DNA of 54,573 bases, counting the filler, from Sluysia triapertura (Eukaryota): NCBI GenBank assembly GCA_046118255.1. It is 4 parts of 4 records of this genome, joined end to end, with 100 filler letters (N's around TTAATTAATTAA, not from the genome) between each part and the next. Parts side by side here need not be neighbours in the genome. Positions count along the whole stretch, not along the records: positions 1 to 13,813 come from JBJNIA010018077.1; 3 more parts are not named here. One strand, given 5' to 3'. Positions 1 through 45,339 of the stretch are shown one piece after another. The translations under genes and the position numbers were made by a program. Every line of letters begins with the position of its first letter. Position 1 is the stretch's first letter. The notes under the pieces are model-generated. The model was not told the origin of the DNA and did no database searches. It saw only the letters and a list, made by a program, of their open reading frames with translations.

Positions 1-74
<74 letters not shown>
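1..74. repeat. (TAT)n microsatellite at window start
   Basis: Perfect trinucleotide run. Similar runs at ~1263-1320, 3233-3300, 20781-20839, 28004-28077, 43276-43348 and 54505-54573. Confidence 0.98.
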
Positions 75-75
<1 letters not shown>

Positions 76-1151
76 GTAATAAATGTACCGGATAATATTA
101 AATCAATTTATAATTTATGCAGGAAATAAGTAAATATTTTATTGTTTTTATGAATTATTACAGTTTCAAAATTTAAAAATATATTTTGAGTCGTAAAGTT
201 TAGATTTTAAAAACATCGAGTACAATTTTCTTTTTGATATTGTATTTTGTTCCAGTAATTTTCTATGATTTCAATAAACAAAAGAAAATCAAGTACATAT
301 TAAATCACAGCATCGTAGATAAAACGAGCCTATAAAATTTTAGTTAAATAAGATTTATTTGCTAAAATATACCAATCATTGGACTTTGTTTTAACAATTG
401 TCATTTAAATTTTTTGTTTTAGTTTACATTACATGGCGGCCAAATTAAAAACTTTTCATTTAATTTATTTTTTGAGCTTTAAATAAACGAAAAAAACTGG
501 CTATTCTAGATATAATACGACATGATTAGAAAGAGGTTTGAACATCACATAAATTTCAATATTTTTTTGATTTATGTTATTAATTCACCTGGTCACTTAT
601 TGAAGAGATGGATAAATAGTATATAGTCTACATCATGCATCTGTAACTTAATTATCTTACTTAATTATCTTGTCAAACGTTAAAGATATTATAATTCATC
701 ACTTGAAATTTTTCTAATATTAAAAATCGACGAAAATCAATAATATTGGTGTAAAATATTAATTTATTCCCAAATAATCACGTTATTCAAAACAGCATTA
801 TTCAAGGTTTATTTGTCATATACTTCATTTTGACAGTTTGATAAGTGAATCATTTCAATTCTTCATAATAATTGAAATTGCGTATTAAAAACTTACTACG
901 TTCGAAACCGAGTTATGCAATGCATTCAGCTTAAACTATATTTAAATATATTATCTAAAGAATGTAGATCAATATTTTTAACATAAATTAAACATTCATA
1001 ATTCAATTTCTCTTTAATACTACATTCATCAAGTCCCTAAATAGACAATAAATTTTTAAACTTTACGAATAATTTAATGATAATTTAATATATATTTTAA
1101 AATGATGTATACTAAAGTATTTATTTTTAATTGTATTCTATTTATTTTCAG

Positions 1152-1249
1152 TATCTTCAGTCAATAGCGCCGCAACAATTAGATAATGACAGTACTCATT
1201 TATTTGATTTAATGGGCAGCATCAAGTTGAACAGTAGAAAAATGAAAAA
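1152..1249 (+). CDS. Possible isolated coding exon of an unidentified gene
   Basis: ttttcag acceptor, one open frame (YLQSIAPQQLDNDSTHLFDLMGSIKLNSRKMK), gtatgt donor, GC higher than flanks. No family recognised. Confidence 0.3.
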
Positions 1250-1262
1250 GTATGTACTTAAG

Positions 1263-1322
<60 letters not shown>

Positions 1323-3232
1323 TTTATATTATTATGTACTTTTATTTTTTATTATTGGATAAAAATATTTACCTGCAGTCAAAGGTTTCTAAATAAATAG
1401 AATCAATATATTAAAATTGATTAAATAATTGTACGTATAAAAAATAGTTTATTAAAAAATAATTTAATAAAAAATAATTTATTATATTTTTAAAGTTTAG
1501 TGCAATTTACTAAGGTAATATAATAATGAAACTAATTTATTTTGTAGCTGAAACAAATTATTTTTAAATAATAATACTATTTTTAAACAAACAATATTTT
1601 TTAAATTAATTATTCATTTTTAATTTTAGCAAGGTAATTTTTTAATATAATTTGTTAGAGATATTTTAAGATGACCACATTGGAAATTTAAAATTGTACA
1701 ATTTTTAAATTTATTAGTATTATTAGTATTAGTATATTAGTAATAGTCTATTAGTATTAGTATTTTTAATCCAATTATTAGAATAATTGGAATATATTTA
1801 CAAAACGAAACATGCATGCAAAAATGGTAACAATCACATCAAATCATCTTAAGAAAAATTTTACATATTTACAAGACTCTATTACACGCTTAATACTCAA
1901 AGACGGTAATCCGACAGAAGTTCAAGTGGCATTCAAAAGTATCCACTGCTAAATTTAATTTTGGCATTAAATAAAATTGATTTTTTCATCACAGTGTTGT
2001 TGAATCGGTTAACCAAAAGAATTACCAAGATTTTATAATGGAAATATTATCAAGACTAAGCAATTAGAATTATTAAATTACAAACGGCAGTGCCTTACAA
2101 TCACAAACTGATATATTAACACTTATTGAACACGTTGTTAGCAAATTGAAGTTTAAATTCAAGATTAGCTGAAAAAAGAATAATTAATAGATTAATAATA
2201 TTAAGCTATTATGTTATAATCAAAAAATTATGCCCTAAGGTTACGTTTTATTGTACTTTTTAATTTCCAAACAATTATAAAACTATCAAATACACTAGGA
2301 TATATCAAATTAAGCGAAAATAAGAACATGTTATAGAATATGTTATTAAACGATCTTTTAATATGATTAAACAAGTTTCATTGTGCTTATTTTATTTGAA
2401 ACCTAAACGTGATAATATTATTGTGAGAATTTATGTAATATAAATGTAATATAAAATTATAAAAAGATATTAATAATCTTAAGATAAAATATTAACTGTA
2501 AAAGAATATTTAAGTAACAAAAAATTGATGGAACTCGCCAGATTTCATTATTAAACAGGGAAGAAACGGATCAAACAGTGGTAAACGAAGAACGAAAAAA
2601 ATCTGATTTTGTAAACATAGAAATGAAGAAACAATAATTAGCAGGAATAAACTAATACCGATAAGAATGTAATTACCAAACAAATGCATATAAATGTCTA
2701 CATGAATTATAATATGATCAAACCAATAGAATACAAGAAAATGCATTAATAAATAAAATAGGTCACGCTGTCACAATAATCTATGTATTAGGTTCATTTA
2801 ACTATTACAATCAAAAAATTTAAGTATAGAAAATTAACTGTATAAAGTTACAGTAGAATCAAATCAAAAAAATTATTGACCTCATAATATTATCAGTTGG
2901 AAGACCAAATAAGGTATTGTTTTTCATAATTAACTGAGAAACGGAGACAGTAATAACTATATAGACAAGGCACAACAGTAATAACTAATTTTTATATTGT
3001 AAATTTAATAATACACACTTGCTGTTATCATGATCTTATTGAAAATTCATTGTGATTTTATTTAAAAACAGTTGATATTCGTATTAGTTATTATATGAAT
3101 TATATTATTTGAATTTTGTATTATTTGATAATATTAATCAATCATTCACTAATAAAATAATTAAATCTGAAATAATTAAAATTTAAAATATTTATTTTCT
3201 ATGTAGACGTAGAAAATTAAATTTACATTAAC

Positions 3233-3302
<70 letters not shown>

Positions 3303-3309
3303 GATATAA

Positions 3310-3605
3310 TGTAACTTTATGCGTACTGTCATGGTAGAGAAGCCGATCTGAAAATAAAATAATAATATTAAATAATAATAATAAGAATATTAATATTAAT
3401 AATAGAAAGAAAAAACTTACCTTATTTGACCTAAAATTACTAAAAATAAATAATACTAATATTACTTACTAGATATTTTCTTCGTCACCATTTGGTTATC
3501 TAAGAATAAAAATAAATATTAATAATATTATTAATCATTTCTTACTGGAGATATAAAAAGACCATTGAGGTCACAAAGAAAACATAATTCAATTCATTGT
3601 TTGTG
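3310..3605 (-). pseudogene. Micro-exon spliced locus (small secreted-peptide gene remnant or ncRNA)
   Basis: Three consecutive GTAAG..AG introns: 3545-3500 (46 nt), 3469-3431 (39 nt), 3420-3348 (73 nt). They separate exons of 30 nt and 10 nt. No clean ORF across all exons. Confidence 0.4.
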
Positions 3606-5887
3606 CAAGTGTTCTTTCCTAACTAGAACTTTCTTACAAAAGATTATCGTCTGGAGCTGAGCTCGGCTAATTAGATACGGTTTACGTCACGAGCGGACGA
3701 CGGTCTAATTAGGCTTTAAAATAAGAAACGTGATGATCACTTATTGATAAGTCAGTAAGGCTCCTTTCAGTAATATTATGAATGTTAAATTATCTTTTAT
3801 TATGCTTTAATTTAGAAGTTAAACCAGCCTTTGTACGGTCTGATTTATACAAACTGTATTTTATAAAAATTAATCAAGAAAGACTTAATATTATAAGATT
3901 TATTATTTACAAATCGGTTGGATGCACAGAGTTTAGTTATAATGATAATAATAATATTCACTTTAGCACCTTAAACTTAATGTTTAGGTACAAAATAATT
4001 GAAAATTTAAAAGATTTTAACCTATCCTTTAACGGTATACGATAATACAATCAATTTAAGTCAATTTTATATTCTACCTGTTACGGTTAGAATAGTGAAC
4101 CCTATTTAATAAAAATTTACCTATGCATGGACAATAGCTTGATCCTTGAAAATTTTTCTCCATTTGCGATATCGAAAATTTTCTCTGAGTCCTATTTCTA
4201 AAATGTGTAGTTTATATATACAATCCTTACTTCCTTGTTTACTGTTTATATTCCTAATTTCGCTTTTGATTCATTAAAACAAAGTTATAAATTTAAAAGT
4301 GTAAATTATTATTTATATTTAAAAGTTTAAATTATTATTTATTTGTTATAATAATGATAATATTTAAGAGATAAATACTATAAAAATAAATAATTAATAA
4401 CTAAAATTATTCAAATTGTCAAAATAAAATAAATTACGATTGTTAAAATAATTAATCAGATATTATTAGAATAAAAATCGGATATTATTATTTGTTAATT
4501 ATTCCATTATTATTTGTTAATTATATGTCCGACAGTTCGACGATATATGTATGACAGTTCGACGATTCCGACATTTGAAAAATAAAGAGTTTACTTAGCA
4601 GATTTTGTGGTTTAATTGGTAACGCAATTTTTGAAAAAACAATTGAAAAGGAATACGTTATCTGACATTAATCGTTTTTGGTAACAAATTTATTCGTCGA
4701 AGAAATATTAGTAAACCCAACCAGTTGTCGATAATATTGATCTTCTGCTCGTCGGAGAAATTTCATTGTTTAACACTTTAGTAAATCAATTAAGTCAGTA
4801 ATATTTAGTCCGCTCGTTGGAAAAGTTCGCTTATTAGATTCCCGTGTGACCTGAATAAATAATTTATTTGATTTTGTGATCGAGAATTTTTTGAAACTAT
4901 CAGTAAGATTTTTATGTTAAGTTTAATCTATATTAGGAGATATAAAAATACTACTCAAAATCTTAATCATTACCTTTAGTTTCGGCTAGGCACAAAATCA
5001 TTTTTAGAAATCTTTAATAATAATTTTAATTTATTTTTATTATTATTTGAAGTAAATGGTTATATATTCTTCGTTTTTGATAATATATTTTGTAGTGTTA
5101 CGTCGTTGATTTAGTTAATTTTTTAAAGTAATTGCTGAGTTGACAAAGCTGAGTTCGATTGAAGTAAGCATAACATTTTAATTGATATTTATGATTTACA
5201 AACAGTTATTAAGCTAAAGAAGCATAAATATAAAGTTTTATATTTTTAAGTAAATTAAAAAGTAACCATAATTAAGTAACCATAATAGAAGAGAGTCCTT
5301 TCTAGAATTAATCATTTAGACTAAGAAAAAGATTAACTTTTGAAGGGAATAAGATTTATAGGTGATTAATATAAGAAAATTAGGACATAAGTTAATTGTG
5401 AGAAAAACCCTCAGAAGATTTATAATCTTTGTTATTAATTACAAGAAAAGAGTATACATTTGCATATATTTCAATTACAAGAAAAGCTTTTTTAAGTTTA
5501 CGTGCTGTTACTTACGAGTGCGTCTCCTTAGAATTAAAGCATACATCGTAAGCGGACCTTTAGAATTAAATAAGGAAATACTAACAGTACTAATACTGAA
5601 ACTTAAATTTATCTCGTTTAGAATGCTGAACTTATAGTAACTGATTCTAATATTTAATGCATTATACTGGAAGTTATCGTTCACACGTATCTGGTGGAAG
5701 ATATGGAACTGCAAATTCATTTAACAAAGTTTAAATTTGAATTTTCTCTTTTTGTCTTAAATCAAATAAGCTAGATTAAACTAAATACAAACCTTGAATC
5801 ATTCAATACAATATTTATCAATTTGTAACGAACTCAAAAAAATAATCATTTGTTTAAAAAACGGTTAGTTGTTACCACATATAATTT

Positions 5888-7370
5888 CAGTGGTAGCCAC
5901 ATTATTAGACTAAAACAGAAAAAATATGTTTTCTTTGGATTTCTTAATATTTGCTCATTATTGAATGTGTAACATAAGAAATATTATATATAATACACGA
6001 AATATTATGTATAATATACAAAATTCGATATATAATATATCTATGTTCTAAATTGCCTATATAATTAGATTATAATAAAAATATGATATGTGATAAGTTG
6101 TTTTAATTTGAAAAACTAAAAGTATCTGCACAATTTGTGGTTTTATCTTGATATTAATGACATCATTAGCCTTGACATATTGATTAGAATATTTTGTTAA
6201 GTGAGTTTTTTTTATATATCGATTCGAAAAAAAGGCCAAAATTGAAGTTTATCTTAAAAAACTGAAATGACGCAAGAAGATATTGCCAAAAATGTATGAG
6301 TTTGTCAGAAATCCATGTCAAGGGTGATGTATCAATTAAGTGGGAAAATGCAGCAGAAAGAAGAAAACATTAGTGAGAAATGATGGATATTTGGTGAAAC
6401 TTTCTACGATGAATCGTAAAGCCACCAGTATGATTTTGCAGAAGCAGTTAGAGACTTGCGGAATTCACGTTAATGCTAGAACAGCCAGAAGGAGACTTGT
6501 AGACCCAGAAGAAAGCCTAAGTTGGCGCCAGTAAAAAGGTTTGCAAGGCTAAACAACACCAGCATTTAACAGAGGATGACTGGAATCAAGTGAGTTTTAG
6601 TACGAGTCGTCCTTTCGAGTATTGGATGAAAAGACCACCTTTGGAAGAAGGAGACCTGATGAGGAGTTTCACTCTGATTGTGTCATAGAAACTGTGAAAT
6701 GTCTAACAATGATAGTCTGGTCGGTTATCTCCATCCATGGTCATGGCAGGCTGTACAGGTTGATGGAACAATGAATCAACATCAATATATGAATGTTCTT
6801 GAAACAAGGATTTTTCCTCAACTTCAGGATAAGTCCAAGAACGGTGATCTCCAATTTATGCAGGATGGTGTACCATGTTACATGGTGAAATCAGTGCGCA
6901 AGGTCATGGTGTTAATCTGGAAACTCTCCAGACATGAATCCCATAGAAAATCTGTGGAAGATTGTTTCAAGAAGAGTTTCTTCCCATAAACCAACTACCA
7001 GGACAGAACTTATTGAAACCCTGAAAAAGTCTAGGAATCATGATGACGATATCAAAGACTTGTACCCCAGGATAACAAAAGAGGTCAAACAAAGTACTGA
7101 TGCAACAGTTTGTACATTTTTTTATTAGGAGTAAATTGTGTTATCATTCTACATTAATAAAACTTCTATATGTTTTGGATCTCAGTATTTTTATCTCTTA
7201 TTTTACTTTCACCATAATTGTTTTGTAGAAAGTAGTTATTTTCCAATATTTTCATTTTTCCATGACATCTGTCGGTAAATGGCATGCATTTATACACTTT
7301 GGATTAATAGTTTCATAATATCTTGAATTTTATCACAATAATGGTTTGTCTAATAATTTGGTCACCACTG
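5888..7370 (+). mobile_element. Tc1-family DNA transposon, degenerate full-length copy
   Basis: 23-bp TIRs (CAGTGGTAGCCACATTATTAGAC vs rc CAGTGGTGACCAAATTATTAGAC, 20/23), TA on the right flank. Broken transposase: HTH-like 6340-6534 (HVNARTARRRL), WNQVSFS..ES, FMQDGVPCY, SPDMNPIENLW. Confidence 0.93.
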
Positions 7371-7801
7371 TACCTTATGAATTTTTCTTTTAATAATTTA
7401 TTGATAATATATCAGTCTAAATACTCTCTCTTCAAAACACAATAAAGATTCAGTAAAAATGTTTAAAATGCAAAATGTCAAGAAGTTAAAACACATTATT
7501 AGTAACAATTAATTTGTACAAATTATACGTTAATAGAATAAAAACAACTAAATTATATTTTTTATACTCTTTTTTCACTATGACTTATTCTTGTTCTATT
7601 AATACTATTTATTCTCACTCCATTGTCAATTACTTTTTCAAAATAAAATTTAACTGGATACTATACCAGTACTATTCATTTTCATTCTATTGTTGATTAT
7701 TTTTTTGGAACGATACATTAAATAGCTTTATTTTTAGTTTAGAATTATTTTTAATTAAATTAAATTTATATTTATTATTTTTTGATAATTTATCTCAATT
7801 G

Positions 7802-7977
7802 TTAACCCTTCCACTGCTCTACACGTATATATTTATAAAAATAATGTGTTTCATAAGCTCCAAGCGAGTATTTTTGCATCATGTTTTAAAATGGTTTCCT
7901 CCTCAACACAAATAAACTCGCAACCACTAAAATATATGTGCGCAGCGGTCGCAAAATTTCAAACGTGTTAGGGTTAA
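7802..7977. mobile_element. Possible piggyBac-type MITE
   Basis: Bounded by TTAA-CCCT ... AGGG-TTAA. The TIR is poor beyond the first bases. Confidence 0.3.
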
Positions 7978-8131
7978 AAGGTTAATTTAATTATGTTCAC
8001 TACATTAACTTCGGTTTATGTTTTTTAGTTGTGATGTTTTTAGGTGTGATGTTTTCTGATAAGTAATTCGTACTTGATATACAAGATAGATACATACATA
8101 TCAAGATTGTAGACTTTACTTGAGTCATTTG

Positions 8132-9970
8132 CTAGTCTCCGTATATAAGCGGTATTTGATTATTTGTAGCGTATTCATAAATTGGAGGTGGAAGTACTGG
8201 CATACCTGGAGGAGGAGTGTAATTATTCCTATGTGGAACTGTATATGCGTCGTCGTCATTATTATTGTTATGTGGCAAACATGGGTATCGACAACTATTC
8301 GAAACAAACATAATAATAGTCAATACCACTATAGCTAAAGCCATTACGAACAGTATTGCCGCCACAATTAATATCACTAATGCTGGATCATTTCGTAATA
8401 TTTCCAATATTGTTAAATGTTTTCTTGTTCCTTTAAATGGAAAATTCAAATATTTTGATGAGTGGCGGAATTTCACTATAATATGTCTATCTTCGACATA
8501 TAAAATATCTGAGCAAACCGTGACTGGATATCTCAATTCACTATTAATATAATTTTCGTATATGATCCACGAACTAAAATTAAGTCTGGCAGGTTTTAAA
8601 CATGCAAATTTGGCATGAATGTTTTGATTCAATATCTTAACTTTTACTTCATTGTTTCTATTATAGAATTCACAATATTCCGTTTTAAAAGATTGTTCGT
8701 GACATTGAACTATTGTAATTATCGTAATTAAAATCAAATGTATAAGATTTTTATTATTCGCAGGAGCCCGTATTTTCGTACCTATTTGAGATAAGTAGAG
8801 TATTGTCCAAAATATGTATAGTACCGCAAAAATTAGGAATATTGTAAAGAACTTGTAAGAGTGTCCCGTTGTACCTTCTGTAGTTGAATTATTTAAGTTA
8901 CTTATCGGTTTCTTAATTGTACCATAATCGGATAAGGTTGTCTGTATTTTCGTTGTTTCTTCATTTCTCAATTGATCTATTTGCTTAATAAATTTCCAGA
9001 TGTCTCGTGTATTTCTTTGAGTGTCGAAAGAAAAAGTTATTATCATTGGTCTATAACCGTAATGTAGACAATGTGGGATTCCGTTTAAACGATGTGGTTT
9101 CCCCACCAGTAAGGGTTTTAGGTAGATGCAATAGATTTCGAATTTATGTCGTAAAATCATTTTCTTAGAAATGAATTCGAACTTCCAATATTGATTGTAA
9201 ATATCGGTAATCATTATTTTCTGTTCCCTGCCATGATTTGTAGCTATATTCATATTTTTATATTCTTCGTCTGTTTCTGTTGCCATGACATTAGTTATAA
9301 GTGACAGAAGAATCACAATTAAGATAGAAAGCCAACAAATTATCTTTCCGAAACGATATTTATTAAAACAATTTCTTTTTCTTATACTAGTCATTATCAT
9401 TACTGTATTCTGAATATCTGAGTTGATTCCTGAATCCGAATTTTCCTCTGATTTAATTGCCGATGGTGATCCCCATGATACATCCGATAAATGAAGTGTA
9501 GAATCGACGATAACAGGTAATGGAAAATCTGGAATTTGTAATGGTGGATTCGACATAGGCATTTGATGTAAAGTTAATTCATCGCCAACTTGTGGAACTA
9601 ATAGTTGCGGTATAATCATATTTGAACCTGGTGGTATTTTTATAAATCTATATTTACTGTGAATAACCATATCTTCCAATTCATATGGGCCATTATCCCA
9701 ATCATTTACTAAATTTAGTACATATTGTACTAATACTTCTATATAGCATGATAGAGTTCCATTGATATTTATAGGTGTTTGATTTACATTATATGTTACC
9801 AGACTTGGTCTTTTTAAGAATATTGATTCCCAAGTAGTTAGAAAATTTTTATGAATGACAGTAATAGTAGTGCCGGTATCTACGATTGCTCTAACCCAGC
9901 GTCCGTTAAACCGCACATTTTGCATTATATGAGCTAAGTCATTTCCATGAGAATGCATCATAAATACCAC
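8132..9970 (-). CDS. 612-aa ORF: retropepsin-like aspartic protease fused to multi-segment membrane/secreted polyprotein (element accessory/env-like ORF)
   Basis: N-terminal VRFNGRWVRAIVDTGTTITVI. Hydrophobic segments KIICWLSILIVILLSLITNVMA, FFTIFLIFAVLYIFWTILYL, LIHLILITIITIVQC, ALVILIVAAILFVMALAIVVLTIIMFV. Pro-rich tail with PPIY. Confidence 0.85.
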   Translation of the reverse strand: MVFMMHSHGNDLAHIMQNVRFNGRWVRAIVDTGTTITVIHKNFLTTWESIFLKRPSLVTYNVNQTPININGTLSCYIEVLVQYVLNLVNDWDNGPYELEDMVIHSKYRFIKIPPGSNMIIPQLLVPQVGDELTLHQMPMSNPPLQIPDFPLPVIVDSTLHLSDVSWGSPSAIKSEENSDSGINSDIQNTVMIMTSIRKRNCFNKYRFGKIICWLSILIVILLSLITNVMATETDEEYKNMNIATNHGREQKIMITDIYNQYWKFEFISKKMILRHKFEIYCIYLKPLLVGKPHRLNGIPHCLHYGYRPMIITFSFDTQRNTRDIWKFIKQIDQLRNEETTKIQTTLSDYGTIKKPISNLNNSTTEGTTGHSYKFFTIFLIFAVLYIFWTILYLSQIGTKIRAPANNKNLIHLILITIITIVQCHEQSFKTEYCEFYNRNNEVKVKILNQNIHAKFACLKPARLNFSSWIIYENYINSELRYPVTVCSDILYVEDRHIIVKFRHSSKYLNFPFKGTRKHLTILEILRNDPALVILIVAAILFVMALAIVVLTIIMFVSNSCRYPCLPHNNNNDDDAYTVPHRNNYTPPPGMPVLPPPIYEYATNNQIPLIYGD

Positions 9971-9982
9971 TTGTTTATTCCT

Positions 9983-12900
9983 TAGTGCGTGAATTGAAGG
10001 CGGTTTATATTTCTTAAATTGTACTCCTCTTTTGGTGCCATTTTACATCTATTAACGTGTACTACGAATGTTTCGGAATTAACTTTGTTAGGATCTTTAA
10101 CACATTTGTATTGGTAACTTTTGTTATTAAATAAGGACCTTTAAAAGGTTTGTGTAACTGACCAGGTTTAGTTATTGTATAATATATTAATACTTCATCA
10201 CCTATTTTAAAAGTATGTTCCTTCGCTGTTTTATCGCATGCATCTTTATATATTTCTTGAGAGTATTTAATTTGAAGACCTGCGCGTTTCCATGCATATT
10301 GTAATTGTTTTCTCATTGTTGTCACATATTCCGAAATCTCCACGTACTGTGAAGTTGGAGGAACCCACTCCAAATCTACTGGCATGTTAGAATGTCTGCC
10401 GTACATTAAATAGAATGGAGTAAAATTAGTTGCCGGGTGTACAGAACTTCTACATGCAAAAAGGCATGGTGCTATATATAAGTCCCAGTCAGTCTGTCTA
10501 TCATTTACGTAAGATTGAATCATATTAATAAGAGTTCTGTTAAAACTTTCCACTAATCCGTCAGTTTGTGGATGGTAAGGAGATGTATAAATTCGAAGAA
10601 AATTGAAGATTTTAGCCACTGATTTAATCACATTGCTAGCATAGTTAGTTCTATGATCTGTTAATAATTTTCTAGGAGTTTCATATTTGTAAATGATCTT
10701 TTCTACCAATATTTGTGCCACCGTTTCGGTCTTTTGATTAGGCATCGGGTATGCCTCTGGCTATTTAGTCAGGTAATCCGCAAATACATTTATATACTTA
10801 TTACCATTAATAGTCTCTGGAAGAGGACTCGTAATGTCCATAGCGGTAAATTCTATTGGTGATAATGGTACTAGCATAGGTTTTAGTGGTACTTTAGTCT
10901 TTTGTCCAGTATTCTTTCGTCGGCAACATATCGAACAATCTTTACAGCATTTCCTTATATCCGATTCCATATTTTCCCAGTAGTATTTACTTTTAATTCT
11001 TGATAATGTTTTCCTCGTTGATAAGTGACCTCCTAATTGTCCGTCATGACATTGTATTAAAATAGGTATAATTAATGATTCCGGTATAATAGTTTTCCAT
11101 TCGTCTTTATTATTTTTAAATCTTAATATTCCATCCATAATAGCTAGTCTTTTTGATTGTAATTCGTTTAAAGTTCCTTTAGCTAACCCATCTAGAATAG
11201 CCGAAATCTCTTTATCTTCTCTCTGATGTTTAACAATGTCTTCAGAGTTCTGTAATTTTCCCGATACTGACATAATTTGTATCAAATTGATACTTCCCTT
11301 ATCATCTACATTCGTCAATCTAGACATACAATCGGCTCCGTTATTTAAGCTACCTGGCTTATAAACAATTTCCAAGTTAAATTCTGATAGTTTGTTGAAC
11401 CATCGGTTGAGTCTACTAACTTCGTCTCGGTGATTATATAAATATGTTAAAGGTTTGTAATCAGTGTACAAATATACTTTCTGTCCTAGCAAGTAATGTC
11501 TGAACAATTTACATGCATACACAATTGCTAGGCATTCTCTTTCGACTGTTGAATAATTCATTTCTGCTTTATTAAGTCTTCTACTGGCGTATGCTATAAC
11601 TGCTTCACGATTATTTTTATCCTTTTGACCTAAAATTGCACCGATAGAATAGTTACTAGCATCCGTAGTTTATTAACATCCGGAAATATTAATATTGGTG
11701 CTGTAGTTAGATGTTCTTTTAGTTCCTTAAATGCCTTTGCCTGTTCTTCGGTCCATTTAAATTCTACATCCTTTTTTGTAAGTTTTCTAAGAGGTTGTGC
11801 AATTTTCGCAAAATTTTTTACAAATCTTCTATAATAATTAGCCAAACCTAGAAAACTCTGAACCTTTTTAACGTTATCAGGTTGAGGAAACTTAATTACC
11901 TTTTCAATATTTCTTGGATTTGGTTTGATACCATCTTTAGATACTATGTGTCCTAAGAACTCGACTTTTTCTTCTGCCCATACACATTTTGTAGGTTTTA
12001 TTTTAAGTCTTGCAACTTCTAGTCTTTTGAGTTTTAAAATCTTTTGAAAATATTATGATGTCATCTATATATACCATAACATTCTTGCATCCTGATAATA
12101 CAAAATTCATACAACGCTGGAAAGTTGCTGGTGCGTCGGTTAAATCAAAAAGCATTTTTTCGCACTCATATAACTCATTTCCGCACGTAAACGCTGTTTT
12201 ATGTTTATCTTTTTCTGCTATTTCAATTTGCCAATATCCACTTTGTAAATCTAAACTTGTAAAATATGTAGCGTTTCCTAATTTATCCAACATCTCATCT
12301 ATTAGTGGCAGTGGGAACACATCTTTTCGTGTTATTTTATTCAATTCTCTAAAATCTATACAGAATCGCATCGTGCCATTCTTCTTTTTAACTAGTAATA
12401 CTGGTGATGAAAAAGGAGAGAAACTCGGTCTTATAACTGCGGCTTTCTTCATAGTGTCAATTTGATCTTGCATTTCCTTTTGATTGCATATAGGGATTCT
12501 ATAAGATTTTCTTCGAACTTATAAGGTTATCTTCTGTTAATGGTATTTCATGTTTTATGATTAATGAATCTCCAATATCATATTTATTTTTTGAAATTGC
12601 TCTTGGATATCGATATATAACTTCGTATAGTTGTTCTTTTTGTTTTTTAGTTAGATTTATGTTGTTAATTTGAATTTCTCCGTAATCCTCCTCTTGTATG
12701 TCGTGTTGTAGTTTTATTGTATTATTTTTTTAATCTGTCACCACGTTAACATGTGTTGGTATTTTATAATTAACAATTCTTCCTAATTTAGTTCCTATGA
12801 ATAACCATTTATTATCATTTGTATAATTTATAATTCGAACAGGTATCTTCCCTTCGCAATTATTACAGATCGAATCTGCAATACCTACATCCAATTTCTT

Positions 12901-13425
12901 TTGGTTAGTCTCTGAAGCTATAAACATAATTCGGCCAGTTAATGAACTATTTGTTTTTGCTGGCATTATATATTCGGTTCTACGCAATAACCATAATGGT
13001 TCATCAACATAAACATCATCATCATCATCGATAGTTCTGTTTGAATGACTATCCATCAATTTAACACTATTAAAATCCAGTATTACTTCTTTTAGTTGTG
13101 ACAGTATATCCATTCCCAATATCATGTCTTCTGGACATTTTTTCATTACTCTCAATTTTACGTCGACTTTATTTTGCCCTATTTCGCATACGGCTTTCAT
13201 TACTCCAACAATGTGTATGGCATCTCCGGTGACTCCTGATAAATGTGAAAAATGATTTGCTACATTTCCTTGTTCCTCTTCTGTTAATTGATTTTCATTG
13301 ATTAATGATGACACTGCCCCTGTATCTACTAGTGCCAAAATGGTTCTTCCATTAATTTTAACGTTAGCCATTGGTCTCTTGGAATTGTTATAATTATTAT
13401 TTGCACATATTATCATATAAACCAC
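9983..13425 (-). pseudogene. pol: Gypsy pol (protease, reverse transcriptase, RNase H, integrase), disrupted
   Basis: ORF pieces 12730-13425 (PR), 12003-12473 (RT), 11630-11845, 10761-11561 (RH, IN zinc finger), 10062-10745 (IN core). In-frame stops at ~12730 and ~10761; frameshifts or deletions near 12520, 12030, 11665 and 10100. Confidence 0.95.
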
Positions 13426-13471
13426 ATTTGGTATCGGTGTCGTTGGAGGATTTGGATAAATTTTATTATCC

Positions 13472-13813
13472 TTATCTTTGATTATCCTTATGTATATCCT
13501 TTTGTGATTTTCTAAGATTTTCCTTTAACTCTTCAATTTCTTCAATTTCATCATTTTGAATTGTCTGTAATGCTACATTTTCATTTTCTATTCTCGTTCT
13601 TTCTTTTCTTAACGCATTTATTTGTGAGTTAGCGTGATGATGTAACAAATATTTCGCCAAAAATGGAAAACAACCTTTTATCAATTTCCAAGTAAAACCT
13701 GAAATCTTATAAATTCCTACAACAGATAAAACTTGGGATATTATTAACGCTATTACTTTAATAATTATGTAAATACCAATTAATCCTGAGAAAGCTTGAC
13801 CTAAAATTAGAAA
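13472..13813 (-). CDS. C-terminal fragment (TM anchor + cytoplasmic tail) of a putative viral-type envelope glycoprotein, chuvirus G / gB-like
   Basis: Frame is open from the gap edge: FLILGQAFSGLIGIYIIIKVIALIISQVLSVVGIYKISGFTWKLIKGCFPFLAKYLLHHH, then a charged tail. The pattern resembles the C-terminus of chuvirus-type glycoproteins as recalled; not verified by search. Confidence 0.6.
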   Translation of the reverse strand, partial: FLILGQAFSGLIGIYIIIKVIALIISQVLSVVGIYKISGFTWKLIKGCFPFLAKYLLHHHANSQINALRKERTRIENENVALQTIQNDEIEEIEELKENLRKSQKDIHKDNQR

Positions 13814-13913
13814 NNNNNNNNNNNNNNNNNNNNNNNNNNNNNNNNNNNNNNNNNNNNTTAATTAATTAANNNNNNNNNNNNNNNNNNNNNNNNNNNNNNN
13901 NNNNNNNNNNNNN
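13814..13913. other. Assembly gap linker
   Basis: 44 N + TTAATTAATTAA + 44 N. Confidence 0.99.
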
Positions 13914-26799: not shown

Positions 26800-26899
26800 N
26801 NNNNNNNNNNNNNNNNNNNNNNNNNNNNNNNNNNNNNNNNNNNTTAATTAATTAANNNNNNNNNNNNNNNNNNNNNNNNNNNNNNNNNNNNNNNNNNNN
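26800..26899. other. Assembly gap linker
   Basis: 44 N + TTAATTAATTAA + 44 N. Confidence 0.99.
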
Positions 26900-33800: not shown

Positions 33801-34204
33801 AAGATCATAGTTATAATAATACGTATTAATCGTAATTTAATATATTCATTTTTTTAATTACATGTATTTTTATATTTATTGATTATATAATAAGTTATTA
33901 AACTTCGTTTTTGCCGTCCTTTTAAAAAATTAAGCTTTTTGTACATGTGTTTTAATTCATCATTTTGTGTAATATTCAAAATTGTAATTAACCTAAATAA
34001 AATACATTTTCCTTGATTTATAAATCTTGATTTATTATAAAAAGATTCATTTTTTTAATAACATGTACTTTTATATCTATTGCATATAAAATGTGTTAAT
34101 AAAAAAATTTTTTTATTAACTTCATTTTCGCCATCCTTTTAAAGTCTCTATATATCAATTAAAATTAAGTTTTTTTGTGCCTTTTTCATTTATAATGCAT
34201 TGTA

Positions 34205-37200
34205 ATGGCCGATTCTAAGTATAGTCCACGCAGTAAGCGTTCAAAACGTTCATATACCAATGATAGAACCAAACGAAGGTCCGATGATTCATCAAATTAT
34301 TCTGATGATAGATCGCACAGAAAGTCTAAGAAGAATCATTACAATGAAAGTGATTCACGGTCATATACACCAGATTCGTCAAGAAATTCCTCACAGTCAT
34401 CACGCTTTAGTTCGTATTCTGCCCAAGATTCAAAAAAGAAAAGTCAAAAAAGATCTTACAAAAGGTCTCGTCGATCTCGCTCTTGGTCAAAGCGATCTTC
34501 TAGTGGTAGCAGTAGTAGTAGCAGAAGCAGTAGTAGGTCATATTTAGAAAAAAAGAGAATAACTCGACCTAGAATAAAAAAGCAGGTTTGGAATAACAAA
34601 GTGTACATAGTTGGAGAAGGTATGAAGGAAAACTCTTTTCATTTTTGTGATTCATGTTCACTTCCTATATATATATATATATTTATTGTCGATTAGTTCC
34701 TTGTAAACACGTGTTTTGTATGAATTGTGGTACAAAATATCAGAATAAAAAGTGTCCCAGATGCGAGAAACAGGTCACGATGACAGAAGCATGTCCGTAT
34801 CACACAATTTTTATGTGCTATGAAGGTGGAAGTTCTCATAGCACTCAGGGTTGTCGTCGCACTTATTTTTCTCAGCGTGATCTCAACTCGCATATAAATC
34901 ATAGACATAAAAAATCATTGCCTGGTATTAGCGCTATTTGCGCAACTAGTGCATCAACAGCTGCTCCCACAGGTTCATGTCCTACAATTACAGCTCCTAT
35001 TGTATCTGTGTCAGGTACTATGAAAGCTCCACATGCTTCTTTAGGTATGCCAGTTATTAGTGGTGCTGTTGGAGGAATTCCTGTTTCTGCAGTTGCTGCA
35101 GTTTTTAATTTACAAGCAGTAGCAGGTTTACCATCAAATCAATTTTCGAATGCCGCAGTGCCGCCTGGTGCGTCTACTCCATCTATTGTCGGTCCAAATC
35201 CATTACACAACAGCAGTCAATCGTCAAATGCGTTAATGCAATCAATGACTAATTTATTTCATACTATTACGAGAAATCAACAGTCTCATGCACCTTACAC
35301 AAACCCAGTCAATATCAATACAACTGCTAAGACAAATATAAACACAGGAACAAATTTAGGACAAATTACACCTCGACTAACGGCCCACCAAACAATTCTC
35401 CTGTAAACACTAGTAGACCACCACCACAAGCACAGACTCTTAATCCATTATCTTTACTTCAGTGTGCAAATAATCCACAGAATGCATTACCTGGTTTACT
35501 TAATCAAGTAAATATTTAATTATATTAAAAATTATTGAAACAAGGTTTACTCTTATTTATTGCGGCAAGATGAGAGTTGTATTTTTATGGGAATATTTTA
35601 TATTTAATGTAGTTCGGTTTATCATATTTTATGAACAATCATATTTTTATATACACAATGTTTGTATCTACTATAGAAAATACATAGAAATGAACACTAA
35701 GAACGAATCAAACCAATAAATTTATTTTATTCTACTTCATTTAGAATTTATATCATTTTGAACCTTTACTTACTAATTCACCAATACAGTAAATTAGTGA
35801 ATTATTGTATTCAGCCATTTTAGCTGAGAATTTCTGTAGCATTTCAAGATTTTTAATATCGTTTAGAATCGCTTTAGTTAAGAATTAGATTCAGAAAAAA
35901 ACGGTTTTAATCGATAGTAATTTTAATTTAAAACACATGACATGTAATTTTAACATCTCATAACTTTTAATTATATTATTAATATCTGATTATATTTTTA
36001 TAGTTTTAATACATAAACTTACATCCAATAACTTAACTTTACAAATACGTAAGTTATACGCTATAATTCAACTTATAATCGAGTTTTTTGACAAGGATGA
36101 AATTTAATTTCGATAAATTTATCTCTACGAACATCAAAAGCTATGAGAAATATTAACAAAGCATTTGACAAAAATAAGCAAACGTTAGAACCCTTAAGCG
36201 ACAAGTTAACGATGACAATATAAGTTTTCAAAATGAGTGCCGAAACTCATAGGAATCTATTATGTACTTGAAGGAGTTATTTGTCTTGGATCCTTGGAAA
36301 AGCCAAATTTTGATGATTTTCTACATATAATTAATCAATATTAATCATCGCTCATCGATTTGTGATATTCCTTGCTTCTATATTTTGGATCATGTATTAT
36401 AAAGTATTTCAAAGGCTTCAAAAGCCCGAAACATTTACTGTACGATACTCAACAGTTTGTGTTATATTATAACCTTAAATCACAACAATGTGCATAAAGA
36501 GATATCTATCAAGTGGCCATCATTAGTTAAATAATAATGCTAAACTGAATATTTCAAGTTAACCATTATGGTAGTGAATCAACTTCAATGTGAATCATTT
36601 TTTCATTTTTCGTACTTCAAACTCGGTACCATCTAATTACCACTTTTCGAAGAAGTGCTGAATCAGTTTAGTCAAAACGGAGTGCTCGATCTGTTAAGTA
36701 TGTCTAAAGTTGAAATAAATGAAATTCTACGTAAAGTTTAGTAATGCAGTGACGCATTTGGTTCTTATTTTGATTAAATAAAATCAATTTTGAGTAGCTA
36801 TTAACTTAATTTTGTTATATAAAAATATATACGATTACTAAATTTTTTGCGCATTAAATTTTATGCATTAGGTTTTAAAGATTGATGCAATACTAAGCGA
36901 AATTTTTACATTAAATTATTACTATTTAACTTAGTAAGATATTTTAAATTTTTGATCTGATTGTATTTAATAGCATGAAATACTGAAAAAGGAAATGTAT
37001 TAAAAATTATAAGCCAAATTAAATTAAATGTTAAAAAGATTCTAGAATGTTACGAAAACTTCTTGATAAATATACCTTGATTTGTTTGTTCGTTTTTTTT
37101 AAAGGTTAGTATTGTATAGAAGTACACTACAAATTTAATAAAATTAATAATTGCAATAAATATTAATACTTTAATTTATTATGAATATTATGTAAATTAT

Positions 37201-40068
37201 ATTAATGTAGTTACCTCTATTCTGTAGTTAATTGTCTATGATATTAATGAGGTAATATCATAATCTCTTAAGTTGGAAAATCTACGGAAAATGCCAATTT
37301 AAAAATTGATAATAATGTTTAAATATTCCTTTTAATTATTAAAACTTATAAACGCATATTTAAATTTCAAAAATAAAATTTGTATTTTATTTTAGAAGTT
37401 TTGTAATAGGTTCATATTCGATATTGTTTCAATTTCGAGAATAAGGCTGGTTCCAAAGCCAATGTCGGTTTTAATAAATTTTTAATAACCATCCAGATTC
37501 TGTAAGCCTTAGAACAGTTGAAAAGCAGTGCCAAAATTTTATATGTAAACTCTAACGTAAGGAATAGACCTATATCTTGACAACCTTCAGAATTTGATCT
37601 ATGCACTGCTTCTTAGAAGACAGATTTGAAGAAATTGATGATATAAAACTGGTCTTTATCAAATATATCAGCTCGAAATAGAAAAATTGTTTACAGCATT
37701 GAATATTACCATCAAAATGGACAGTGATTATTTTTTTGACTATACATTTGGAATTTTTTCAAAAATTATTTTTTGTTACTAAAATTTCATTAGATTGTCA
37801 TTCATACGTTACCTTTGGTCATAATTTTGAAAAATAAATAAATATTGGAAGGAAAATATTTGAACATACGTCAACCCATAATTAAAAATTAAAAAAGGTT
37901 GTACAAAATATTATTGCACTTATTGAAATTCACATTAGTAAAAGATTAACTGTATAAACACATTTCGCTCTGCTGACGTATTCGACGCACATGCAAGTCA
38001 GCTATATTTACTTGCCCTTTCAAGTACTTTGAGTAGATAAATATGTCTTTGTTTAACTTGGTTGGTCGTATCCATATGTCTCACATACAAAACAACGCAC
38101 AATGGTTAATACGTTATTTAAAACATGTAGTGTGCCTAAATGGGTGGAACGTGAATTTTGTCCCGTTGTGTGAGTTATTGGCACATGTCCTTTAAAAATA
38201 CGATGAGTCTGTTATACGTTGCCTGGTTAACAAGTTAATTAGAGTAATACTATTCTTACTGCTTAATTTTTATGAGTTTTAGCCTTTTGTTTTCAATATT
38301 TTCATTGCAGCATAATTTGTAAACGCTTTATAATGGTTTAAGTGACAATTTTATTTTCAATAACAAATGATGCGCTTTTTTCACTCAGCATTTATATATT
38401 TTGCTTTTTTACGTATAATTTTATTTTCATGTTTTTTGGTCACAAATTACTGGAACTGTGGTTCATATAGAAAAATTCATCAATAAATTGAGAAGCAATG
38501 AATGCGTCAATAATTATTACGTAGAATTCGTAATTTGAGGAATAATTATATTGTAAAATTTTAATTAAACCATAAAATAAATATTTTATAATTTAAAATA
38601 AATCTCTCAGTAATTTTGGTAGATTCAAAGATATCTGAAATTAGGGAATAAATGTTATAAGAACGTAGGATGGATTTCGTTACAATTACTAGCAAGTAGA
38701 GATGGTAGCAGATTTAGCAGAAGCACCGCACAAATGAAAAAACATGAATATTAACAAGCTCAAACCAACAATTTTAATTGAGTATATGTAAATAAATAAG
38801 TTGAAATATTGTAGGAAAAGTTAAGTAATGTGTAGAGGAAATTAACCTTATTATCACTAACATTTATACAATGTTAACCATTGAATTATAATGACCACAA
38901 TGGGGATACTTAACTATGTAAAAAAGAGTGGAACTGGCCATAAACATCGGCGAAAAATTTTGTGTGAAGCGAGTTTTCCAATCGCAACACAAGGCAATTT
39001 AATATTTTTGGAGGCAAGAATATTTTATTTCGGATTCTCCGATTTTGAGACAATCTGTTAAATTTGGAATTGGACATTTTAATAATATTTGACCACTACC
39101 AAAATGGATTATAATTAAAATAAGTACAATACCTAAGTTAAAGTAAGTAATTATAAAATAAAATTTTAAAGTGCATATTGTCCCTTTATACACTTTATTG
39201 AGTCGATAGATTTATTCGTTTCTGAGTATGGGGATTATTATTTTAACTCTGGAATTTGCGCTTCCCTTTTTACCGTAAGTCACCAGTTCAGAATTCATTC
39301 CATAAAGTAAATTTTAATTATAAATCAACTTGTTTATTAGAATTTATACAAGATAAAAGTTATGTCACCTTATAAAAAGAAACGGGATTTTTATAATGTA
39401 ATTCTTTCAAGATTAATTGTTTTGGAGATAACTCAAATGTTAAAATATTTCTTTAGTTAAATACCTTTCGTTTTCATACACAAAGAAATATTTTAAGTCA
39501 AAATTAAGATAAGTAGAATTAGAATTTTCTTTTTGTATTATATGAAAATTAATGGGTTGTTTAATTTGTAAAATTTGTAAAAAAAATCAAGCTTACTTTT
39601 AATTACATTAATTTATGCATAATAATATATATATTTAGGAATAGATAATTACAGGTTTTTTATATTCTTTTTTCTTATTTAAAATTATTGATCAACATTT
39701 AGGCTTCTAGCTTAACATCCGGTTCAACTTCTAATTCTTTGCAAGCTTCATCTGTAACAGTTAATCAACAAAAACAATCTGGGCCTTCTCCAAATCATGC
39801 TGCTCTAATGGCAGCTGCTGTGGCTTCTAATCCATTACTATTGGCTGCAGCAGCATCAGCAGTTTCATCCAATCAACAATCAGTTCCAACTGGTGCAGTG
39901 CAATCTATTCAGACAGGACCTCCACCACCTAATATTCCACATAATAATACACCATTTTTAAATACACTACAATCCTTCTTGACACTAGCAGCTTCGCAAC
40001 AGCAACAAGGACCCCCACAATATGGCGGTAATGTATCGCAACAAAACAGACATCTGCACAGAAATTAA
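34205..40068 (+). CDS. CBLL1: E3 ubiquitin ligase Hakai (m6A writer complex component); two apparent frameshifts in exon 1
   Basis: RS-rich N-terminus; WNNKVYIVGE..HFCDSCSLPIYIY/CRLVPCKHVFCMNC..CPRC RING; GCRRTYFSQRDLNSHINHRH C2H2 (HYB domain). Exon 1 34205-35507 (shifts at ~34675 and ~35370), phase-0 intron 35508-39702, exon 2 39703-40068. Confidence 0.9.
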
Positions 40069-40187: not shown

Positions 40188-40659
40188 ATGACAGTAACAA
40201 GGCGCTCTTCTCAAGGGGAATTTAATTTCTTGTTTAACTTAGATCATATTGACAAGTCAGTACAAATACATTTACAAAAAGTCTATGTTACTTTGACGTT
40301 AGGTTGGCTGGCAGCATCAATTGGATCAGCATTCTCAATTATTTTTATGCGAGTAAATTAAATAAGTAATTTATATTCTTGATTTTTGTAGTTTGGTTTG
40401 CTTGCAATAATAGGATCAATATGTTGTTTATTGTATTTAGTTTTTGTACAGCCTACTGAAAGAAATTTAATACAACGATTTATAGCATTTTTATTGTTTG
40501 GATTTTTTTCCGGTATTGGTACAGGTGAAATAATATTCGTTGCATTAATAATTGAACCGTCAATTGTGGCTACAGCATTTTTACTAACTGCAGTTATATT
40601 CTTTTCATTTACTATGGCCGCTTTATTCAATAATAATCGGTCGTTTTTATATTTGGGAG
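40188..40659 (+). CDS. TMBIM6: Bax inhibitor-1, 5' exons (3' part not found)
   Basis: Exon 40188-40352 (..VQIHLQKVYVTL..), 39-nt intron, exon 40392-40659 (..EPSIVATAFLLTAVIFFSFTMAALFNNNRSFLYLG). Matches BI-1 HLKKVY and PSI..TAF..RSYLFLGG motifs. Confidence 0.9.
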
Positions 40660-42096
40660 GTTGATTTTAGATTTCTGACAATTATTATATTTGACTATTT
40701 TATATTATATTTGATTATTTTGCAACTTCTAACCAATACAAATCTTTAAAATAAACAGAGACATCTTCAATTTTTTATAAGTGAAAATAAGTTATATTCT
40801 GCAACATATTAAAGATAAATATTGTCAAGAAAAAATAATTCAACTAAAATATGATGAACTTTGTGCAAGAGGATTCATCAGTGAATAATAGAACAAGATA
40901 TTGGGTCGTCTCTTAAGCAATGTCAAATATTTTCAATTTTATAAATTTTTTTCGAAAATTTTTCGATTTAGGGAATTCACATACGATCTAAATATTAAAT
41001 CACGTAATCGTCAAAGTACTAAGTATGTCCTCACATTCACGTTGATTGGCGACATGTTATTTTACTGTTTCCGAATCTTTCTTTTCATTATCAATAGCAA
41101 TTTATTATCACCCAAGTTTACTTATAATTCATTGTTCCATCGTCGTAGAGCTCAACTCGAACGGCAGACATTAATATTGCAATCACATGAGGGCCTGACC
41201 ATAATTGATCGCATCTTCTACTTTTCATAATCATTACTTTTAAATCCGGATATATTATTAGAGAAAAAAGAGTTCGGCTGCCTAAATTATGGAAATTTCA
41301 CTGTATTAATTTATTTCCTCAGAAAATTTGCTGCGCTATCTCGTCCAAACACAAAACCTTGTTTCAGAATCTAATATTGTTAGGTAAGCTACATCTTTAT
41401 GCATTTGGTAGTGGATAAATGGTTGTGCTTTTGTTTAAGCATGTATCACAATAAAGTAGCGCATTATTGATTTAATCTATTCAGTCATTATGTCGACTCT
41501 AAAGTGACAAATGTGAAGTACATTCTGAATTTCATCAACGCTCAGTTATTAGTTAAACTTAATAACATTAACATTAATTTTTCTACTTAATTATCACCAC
41601 ATTTTATATATACATAATCTTTAAGCTTTATCGTCAATCCATGTTTGAAACATTTTGTATCATTTCTTGACTGAACTTATTCTTTTTCATTACATTTAAT
41701 TAAAAATTGTGAAATTTAACAAATTGTTTGAATTTTTATATTCAAACATTTTTATATTTTAAATTATTTACTAATATTAATTTATTTATTATTGTCATGA
41801 ATATAAATTATTTTTTTATTGATAAATTCATCTTGGTATCTCGAGTTAATTCGTCAATTGCGTAAGAGAAACACTAAAAGCAAAATATGAATGCTAATAT
41901 TTGTTCAATTTACGGTGTTTTTTAATCCCTTAACTACTGATAAATTTCTACAAAAACAAAAACAAGAGTTGGAAAAGTGGTGTAATTGCACATGTATTTT
42001 AATAGGAATTATATGCGTTATGATTTATGCATGCATTCATTTATTCAGGACAGAAGGGTTTTAAACTTCTTTTCTGGATCGATTGAAAATAAATAT

Positions 42097-43348: not shown

Positions 43349-43448
43349 NNNNNNNNNNNNNNNNNNNNNNNNNNNNNNNNNNNNNNNNNNNNTTAATTAA
43401 TTAANNNNNNNNNNNNNNNNNNNNNNNNNNNNNNNNNNNNNNNNNNNN
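43349..43448. other. Assembly gap linker
   Basis: 44 N + TTAATTAATTAA + 44 N. Confidence 0.99.
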
Positions 43449-44654: not shown

Positions 44655-45339
44655 ATGAGTCAAAAACTTGAAACAGATTGTATGACGTTGGTTAGATATA
44701 TCCTAAAGATGCAACGGAAGCATCCTGAGGCATCTGGTGATTTTACTCAATTAATGACTGCAATTGCAACTGCGGTTAAAACAGTTTCCTCGTATGTCAG
44801 GAAAGCTGGCATTACAAAACTGTAAGTTCTAGAAAAATTAAAGAAAACTTGTTTTGTTTTCAGATTTGGATTAAGTGGTGATGTTAATGTACAAGGTGAA
44901 GATGTAAAAAAGTTGGATGTAATTGCTAACGATTTGTTTATAAATATGCTTAAATCATCTTATAAAACTTGTTTTCTAGTTTCGGAAGAAAATGATGAAG
45001 GAATTTTTATTCCACAAGAATTTGAAGTTAGTAAATAAAATTTTAATTAGATAATAATAAAGTAACATGTTAGATGTTAGTTATAATTAATGCATTTTAT
45101 AGGGCAAATATGTGGTTGCTTTTGATCCTTTGGACGGTTCATCTAATATTGATTGTCTTGGTTCAATTGGTTCTATATTTTCAATAACGAAACGTAAATC
45201 AAAAATGGGAGAAACGAACAAGTCAGATGGACTTCAAGTTGGTCGAGAAATAGTTTCTGCAGGTTACGCGTTATATGGTAGTGCAACAGTTATTGTATTA
45301 AGTCTTGGAGAAGGGGTTCATAGTTTTATGTTGGATCCA
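44655..45339 (+). CDS. FBP1: Fructose-1,6-bisphosphatase class I, first three exons
   Basis: Exons 44655-44821, 44864-45026, 45103-45339 with GT-AG introns of 42 and 76 nt. Motifs [46 protein letters not shown]. Remaining exons not found in the window. Confidence 0.95.

Follow-up and report, generated by a model that had tools for sequence, protein, structure and literature searches.

An envelope gene of the PF24664 family before pol in a decayed Ty3/gypsy copy of Sluysia triapertura

Introduction

A short frame in the genome of Sluysia triapertura (GenBank assembly GCA_046118255.1) lies upstream of a retroelement pol, at the place where gag should end, and the initial annotation took it for the tail of a chuvirus-G/gB-type fusion glycoprotein. 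This raises the question of whether the frame is the end of an envelope gene and, if so, whether that gene belongs to the element whose pol follows it. We examined the frame within the whole stretch of DNA that contains it (the window, 54,573 nucleotides) and among its relatives. In our judgement it is highly probable that the locus represents the 3' portion of a decayed Ty3/gypsy copy in which a PF24664 env precedes pol, likely an element of the GAG-ENV-POL type, and that its intact relatives are single polyproteins, which we predict to pass through the ER membrane and to be cut by their own proteases. Since the env-before-pol order has already been published, the window adds one more broken copy.

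Results and discussion

Identification of the envelope tail

The ORF track gives the frame 70 residues, which is consistent with a TTG codon at residue 44 of a minus-strand frame that stays open for 113 residues (Table 1), as the initial annotation had noted; the plus strand at 13472-13813 has no open frame. Residues 1-40 form a single hydrophobic stretch by hydropathy and are followed by a charged tail, and the peptide KIYPNPP lies in the adjoining frame and leads into a retropepsin. None of the three minus-strand reading frames across 12701-13813 contains a CCHC knuckle, as expected if gag sits past the contig end. In these points the early description of the locus was accurate. The frame also reaches the gap described beside it, although this gap most likely marks the place where separate contigs were joined, because the same pattern of N, spacer and N recurs identically at 13814-13913, 26800-26899 and 43349-43448. 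The window thus most likely consists of four concatenated contigs, and DNA past 13913 may not adjoin the element. The env gene of this copy is truncated 5' by the contig end.

A Pfam search assigned the tail to PF24664 (Monjiviricetes_fusion) at profile positions 544-628 of 653, with an E-value of 3.9e-11 and 42.1 bits against a gathering cut-off of 27 bits, and the chuvirus-G/gB-type family call was therefore right. A word-indexed protein search with the 113-residue piece gave no match among 296 candidates, and a PDB sequence search with the tail gave nothing useful.

Table 1. Positions of the features in the window and of the post-integrase modules in its relatives
Feature	Position (strand)	Remarks
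Env tail frame	13813 to 13475 (-)	113 residues; stop 13474-13472
C-terminal membrane anchor and cytoplasmic tail of PF24664 (chuvirus-G/gB-type) envelope protein	13472..13813 (-)	
YP motif between env anchor and protease	13460-13455 (-)	
YP motif, retropepsin (DTG, ILGxD motifs) and PR-RT spacer	12733..13524 (-)	RVP E 7e-12
Reverse transcriptase, N-terminal piece	12006..12518 (-)	RVT_1 E 3e-22; 58-63% identical to relatives
Reverse transcriptase, C-terminal/connection piece	11633..12052 (-)	different frame
RNase H and integrase zinc-binding domain	10764..11669 (-)	RT_RNaseH E 8.5e-35; Integrase_H2C2 E 3e-19; in-frame stop at end
Integrase core and GPY-type C-terminal region	10065..10760 (-)	rve E 6e-5, below cut-off; 44-57% identical to relatives
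Last integrase residues, HVNRCK motif	9985..10101 (-)	different frame
636-codon open frame directly after integrase	8132..10042 (-)	covered by repeat-family contigs
Artificial joint, 44 N + 12-base spacer + 44 N	13814..13913	not biology
Post-integrase type I membrane module, L001	10069-10710	
Post-integrase type I membrane module, L002	9101-9958 and 4808-5233	
Post-integrase type I membrane module, P0004, P0016, P0037, P0039	C-termini	

Pol domains and decay of the window copy

The env tail stands directly 5' of protease and pol on the same strand, and the pol domains follow it in the order protease, reverse transcriptase, RNase H and integrase, all on the minus strand, which is the Ty3/gypsy order. 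The spacer between protease and reverse transcriptase is homologous to that of the relatives; it is dUTPase-like by position only and gives no Pfam match to a dUTPase. The integrase carries a GPY-type tail, described as a hallmark of the integrases of gypsy elements, retroviruses, Odin and Ginger1 that was not found in Troyka (PMC12440569), and ends in an HVNRCK motif common to the window and the relatives P0004 and P0039, with HANRCK in P0037.

The copy is interrupted by at least six frame changes and two in-frame stops. The frame changes lie between env and protease, between spacer and reverse transcriptase, within reverse transcriptase, between reverse transcriptase and RNase H, within the integrase tail, and between integrase and the next frame. 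With so many breaks the window copy is likely dead, and it falls outside the intact-ORF rule by which elements were included in the paper on GAG-ENV-POL errantiviruses, as that rule is worded in the available text (PMC13524379). It is a decayed copy of an env-before-pol family and not an intact member. About 5.7 kb of the element lies inside the window, which contains no gag, env ectodomain or recognised LTR, and we therefore infer the GAG-ENV-POL arrangement of this copy from its relatives. Among the matches listed, no long direct repeat was present in 1-13813, and none was found in the related loci L001 or L002.

One public sequencing run, X1, contains the stretch and may be the source sample. 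Of its contigs, 19,664 match 6000-13813 with a likeness of at least 85%, mostly of 90-95%. The contig depth of the env-tail bin equals that of the pol bins; no contig spans the stretch, and the depth summed over contigs does not give a copy number. The element belongs to a repeated family.

Relatives with env and pol in one polyprotein

We searched 1.84 billion representative sequences (a 50%-identity library) with the env tail using HMMER at an E-value of 0.001 or better and obtained 34 matches, 33 of which were real; P0034 was rejected as a repetitive non-homologue. Together with the Pfam match, these hits bear out the similarity on which the first reading of the fragment depended. The HMMER matches, their cluster mates and two metagenome loci gave 39 sequences aligned to the tail. 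Nineteen of them (three being cluster mates of others) stay in frame up to a protease motif that lies 127-387 residues further along, and the other 20 stop 68-146 residues past the start of the anchor. Seventeen of the 19 read-through relatives have a YP motif between anchor and protease, and KIYPNPP of the window corresponds to it; we take this motif to resemble YPxL late domains. In the window, about 162 codons separate the env anchor from the protease catalytic motif, a spacing that falls within the range of the relatives.

In six relatives (P0004, P0016, P0037, P0039, L001 and L002) env, one or more proteases, reverse transcriptase, RNase H and integrase share a single frame. One of them, L001, is a single frame of 3703 residues with a Gag containing two CCHC knuckles, a signal-like stretch, an env with the whole PF24664 domain and its anchor, two proteases, reverse transcriptase, RNase H and integrase, whose pol is 56-62% identical to that of the window in reverse transcriptase and integrase core. 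CCHC knuckles also occur 5' of env in P0010, P0012, P0016 and P0019. The number of protease motifs per polyprotein ranges from one to seven across the relatives, with three to seven D[TS]G retropepsin motifs in P0012, P0039, P0004 and P0007. The top matches for the env tail and for the pol pieces are the same proteins. Since the closest relatives are single GAG-ENV-POL polyproteins, the window element is likely of the same type. The proposal that env lies 5' of pol in a Gypsy element thus agrees with both the order in the window and the polyproteins of the relatives. The tail does stand before pol, where gag was expected to end, but env does not replace gag, since the relatives have a Gag with CCHC knuckles upstream in the same frame.

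For the 70-residue anchor we built a quick tree from 35 rows, having excluded four matches that were too short at the start. Stand-alone G proteins formed a separate clade with a support of 99, and the window fell among the protease-linked sequences, without strong support. P0027, the one full-length stand-alone G among the matches (31% identical), belongs to the stand-alone G clade. The likeness to chuviruses therefore holds at the level of the PF24664 family, but the nearest relatives are retroelement envs and not free chuvirus G proteins. Capture of the env from a chuvirus is a putative origin.

Several relatives carry further features. A YQE[ST]D-type env motif is found in P0004, P0007, P0009, P0012, P0037, P0039, L001 and L002. 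P0019 gave a BDV_G match below the cut-off (E 3.9e-5), L001 a weak ubiquitin-like match 5' of env (E 0.018), and P0039 contains ankyrin repeats. Searching the PDB by sequence, with the L001 ectodomain as with the env alignment, turned up no fusogen, and the putative class III fold therefore rests on PMC13524379, as far as its available text describes it. IMG/VR scans with the protease piece, the reverse transcriptase piece and the env alignment confirmed no locus. At NCBI the gag-env-pol polyprotein P0016 is listed under a Flavobacteriaceae MAG, where it is called a hypothetical protein; animal DNA was likely binned with a bacterial genome in this record.

Alternative explanations

A programmed +1 frameshift that sets the ratio of env to pol could account for the change of frame from env tail to protease. 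LTR elements commonly shift frame before pol, and here the env frame ends where the protease frame opens, with an overlap of about 17 codons. However, 19 of the 39 aligned relatives are in frame through this junction, the window copy has at least seven further breaks, and the X1 copies vary in length at this junction. We consider programmed frameshifting very improbable, and the frame change is likely a lesion of the window copy. The possibility that the tail lies against a gypsy pol by chance, as a free chuvirus-derived endogenous element or as the 3' env of a neighbouring element, seems to us slighter still. Jingchuvirales glycoprotein EVEs, with a chuvirus-like G, are often found next to gypsy fragments, with no capture proven, according to the available text of PMC10084718, and the 5' side of the tail is outside the contig. 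Against this, neither LTR nor host DNA separates tail and protease, the anchor-to-protease spacing fits that of the relatives, tail and pol share their top matches, and the stand-alone G sequences are in another clade.

We also considered whether the tail comes from a host gene, as a membrane-protein exon, or is a hydrophobic frame that arose by chance, as its shortness, its hydrophobicity and a weak Pfam match to S_4TM (E 0.01) might suggest. A profile built from the relatives scored the tail at 103 bits and its reversed sequence at -1.2 bits; none of 1000 shuffles of its first 70 residues reached the real score, the best being 11.8 bits, and scores of 2 bits or less were obtained for two further membrane proteins from the window. 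In addition, the tail is 58% identical to the L001 env over 72 residues. Based on the Pfam, HMMER and shuffle results, we regard a host exon or chance frame as refuted, with almost no probability left to it.

The membrane topology of the element's proteins was derived from hydropathy. Judged by this and by general polyprotein topology, Gag would remain cytosolic in an intact GAG-ENV-POL polyprotein, an internal signal sequence would direct the env ectodomain into the ER lumen, and the anchor at 13472-13813 would stop transfer, so that one or more retropepsins just past the anchor would free reverse transcriptase and integrase. A second module of signal, ectodomain and anchor after integrase would yield a second surface protein. 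The env, a putative class III fusogen, would let particles fuse with other cells, for example germline or stem cells.

Post-integrase membrane module and the 636-codon frame

All six relatives that continue past integrase end in a signal-like stretch, an ectodomain, an anchor and a tail, as judged by hydropathy (Table 1), and L002 has an additional copy of this type of module between two proteases. The post-integrase ectodomains of the relatives are mutually homologous, with a score of 49.4 bits for the held-out L001 against shuffle maxima of 9.1 and 7.7. The L001 ectodomain was placed with FN3 clusters in Atlas (0.89, a lead only). Its AlphaFold model, made from a four-row alignment, shows two beta-sandwiches (pLDDT 78.7, pTM 0.44), and a Foldseek search with this model was led by tandem FN3 pairs (E 1.3e-7, TM 0.3-0.37, 9-14% identity). 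We therefore predict a tandem FN3-like architecture for the L001 post-integrase ectodomain. Sequence searches of the PDB with the L001 ectodomains yielded no useful match. Such a membrane protein may serve attachment as a candidate role. We found no description of the module in the literature, where Repbase, figures or supplements could contain one. In L001 (12085-13473) and L002 (10617-12107), an RNase_T-family (DEDD) exonuclease ORF lies 3' of the polyprotein (E 1e-3 and 1e-5), as does a small ORF rich in charged residues; no match to the exonuclease was found in window 5000-8134.

In the window, integrase is directly followed by the 636-codon frame, which stays open, while pol has at least eight breaks. 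The frame starts with a partial retropepsin-like region in which DTG is present and about 30 residues match Pfam below the cut-off; a further protease motif directly after integrase is also found in two of the six relatives (P0004 and P0039). Hydropathy shows three hydrophobic stretches, to which a fourth, weaker one, a signal by eye, can be added, and the tail is proline-rich with one PPxY. The frame is likely part of the element, encoding a putative protein that likely consists of two signal-ectodomain-anchor units. As homologues of the relatives' FN3-like module these units were rejected, with scores of 0.0 and -0.7 bits, within the shuffle range, and hhalign between the frame and the module gave a probability under 1%; the two match in position and topology only. 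The frame had no homologues among 5653 candidates, its Atlas likeness to viral glycoprotein clusters was at most 0.79, a level often reached by shuffled proteins, and its single-sequence model had a pLDDT of 42.

These features permit a tentative proposal, which we think possible but rather less likely than its being wrong, that a single polyprotein holds a two-part entry system, with a gB-type fusogen before pol, a swappable attachment glycoprotein after integrase, and extra retropepsins at the membrane boundaries that free the enzymes. The attachment protein would be tandem FN3-like in the relatives and an unrelated two-unit protein in the window. Such a system would echo viruses in which binding is split from fusion; for an LTR retrotransposon, no description of this split was found in the literature, and we know of no attachment partner of gB-type retroelements. 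If the post-integrase protein sets cell binding, it would give a handle on the choice of target cells by gB-type retroelements in invertebrates, and annotations that end pol at integrase would miss a structural gene.

Comparison with published elements

The planarian Burro elements have env in frame between gag and protease within one very long polyprotein; they exceed 30 kb and have long LTRs, cargo of BIR, BCL2, MATH and ankyrin types, and a dUTPase-like domain between protease and reverse transcriptase, according to the available text of PMC6431247. Taken together with its relatives, the element described here resembles Burro/GYPSM1 in the position of env between gag and protease, in the very long polyprotein (of its relatives) and in the PR-RT spacer, and further in the ubiquitin-like match before env in L001 and the ankyrin repeats of P0039. 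With its 5' half outside the window, we do not assign this copy to Burro. In the same text the Burro env is gypsy-Env-like with mononegavirus matches, and no membrane protein after integrase is named.

GAG-ENV-POL gypsy elements with a gB-type env are reported by Chary and Hayashi from Nematoda, Bryozoa and Platyhelminthes, and their group Platyhelminthes_C1a comprises six Schmidtea mediterranea elements whose ENV is of the HSV/gB type, in 1-215 copies, as given in the available text (PMC13524379). The window element is like this group in having env before pol, the PR-RT-RH-IN order and a repeated family, and unlike it in being broken and cut. Its nearest relatives have in common with Platyhelminthes_C1a a YQE[ST]D-type motif in env, and the spacing of the env cysteines also agrees by eye. 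Four spellings of this motif were searched in the env alignment file of PMC13524379 and occur only in the six Schmidtea elements; 19 nematode env rows, none of which has any of the four, look unlike the env of the relatives. The main text of that paper describes neither repeated proteases nor a post-integrase membrane module, and its figures could contain one.

Env and pol are flipped in order against gag-pol-env in the window as they are in the nematode non-canonical ERVs (Sacco et al. 2022, as cited in the available text of PMC13524379). The Anakin elements of mosquitoes likewise are LTR retrotransposons with a Chuviridae-like glycoprotein (PMC7642597, and cited in the available texts of PMC10084718 and PMC13524379), but Anakin belongs to BEL/Pao and the window element to gypsy.

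Other content of the window

A broken Tc1/mariner-like transposase remnant with weak Pfam matches to HTH_Tnp_Tc3_2 and DDE_3 lies at 6340-7125 (+), beside the 3' end of the element. Host genes on the plus strand at 34196-40065, 40392-40661 and 44676-45339 comprise a Hakai-like E3 ligase, one exon of Bax inhibitor-1 and, with short introns, three exons of FBPase, and by their sequence likeness we take them as belonging to an animal genome. In an FBPase tree, the window sequence grouped at 99/95 with three other sequences, apart from the six named parasitic flatworms and from the named arthropods, molluscs and deuterostomes, in a set containing no named triclad or nematode. Judged by the env family, a planarian is a plausible host. 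Long (TTA)n microsatellites are present at 1-77, about 1260-1320 and 3230-3300.
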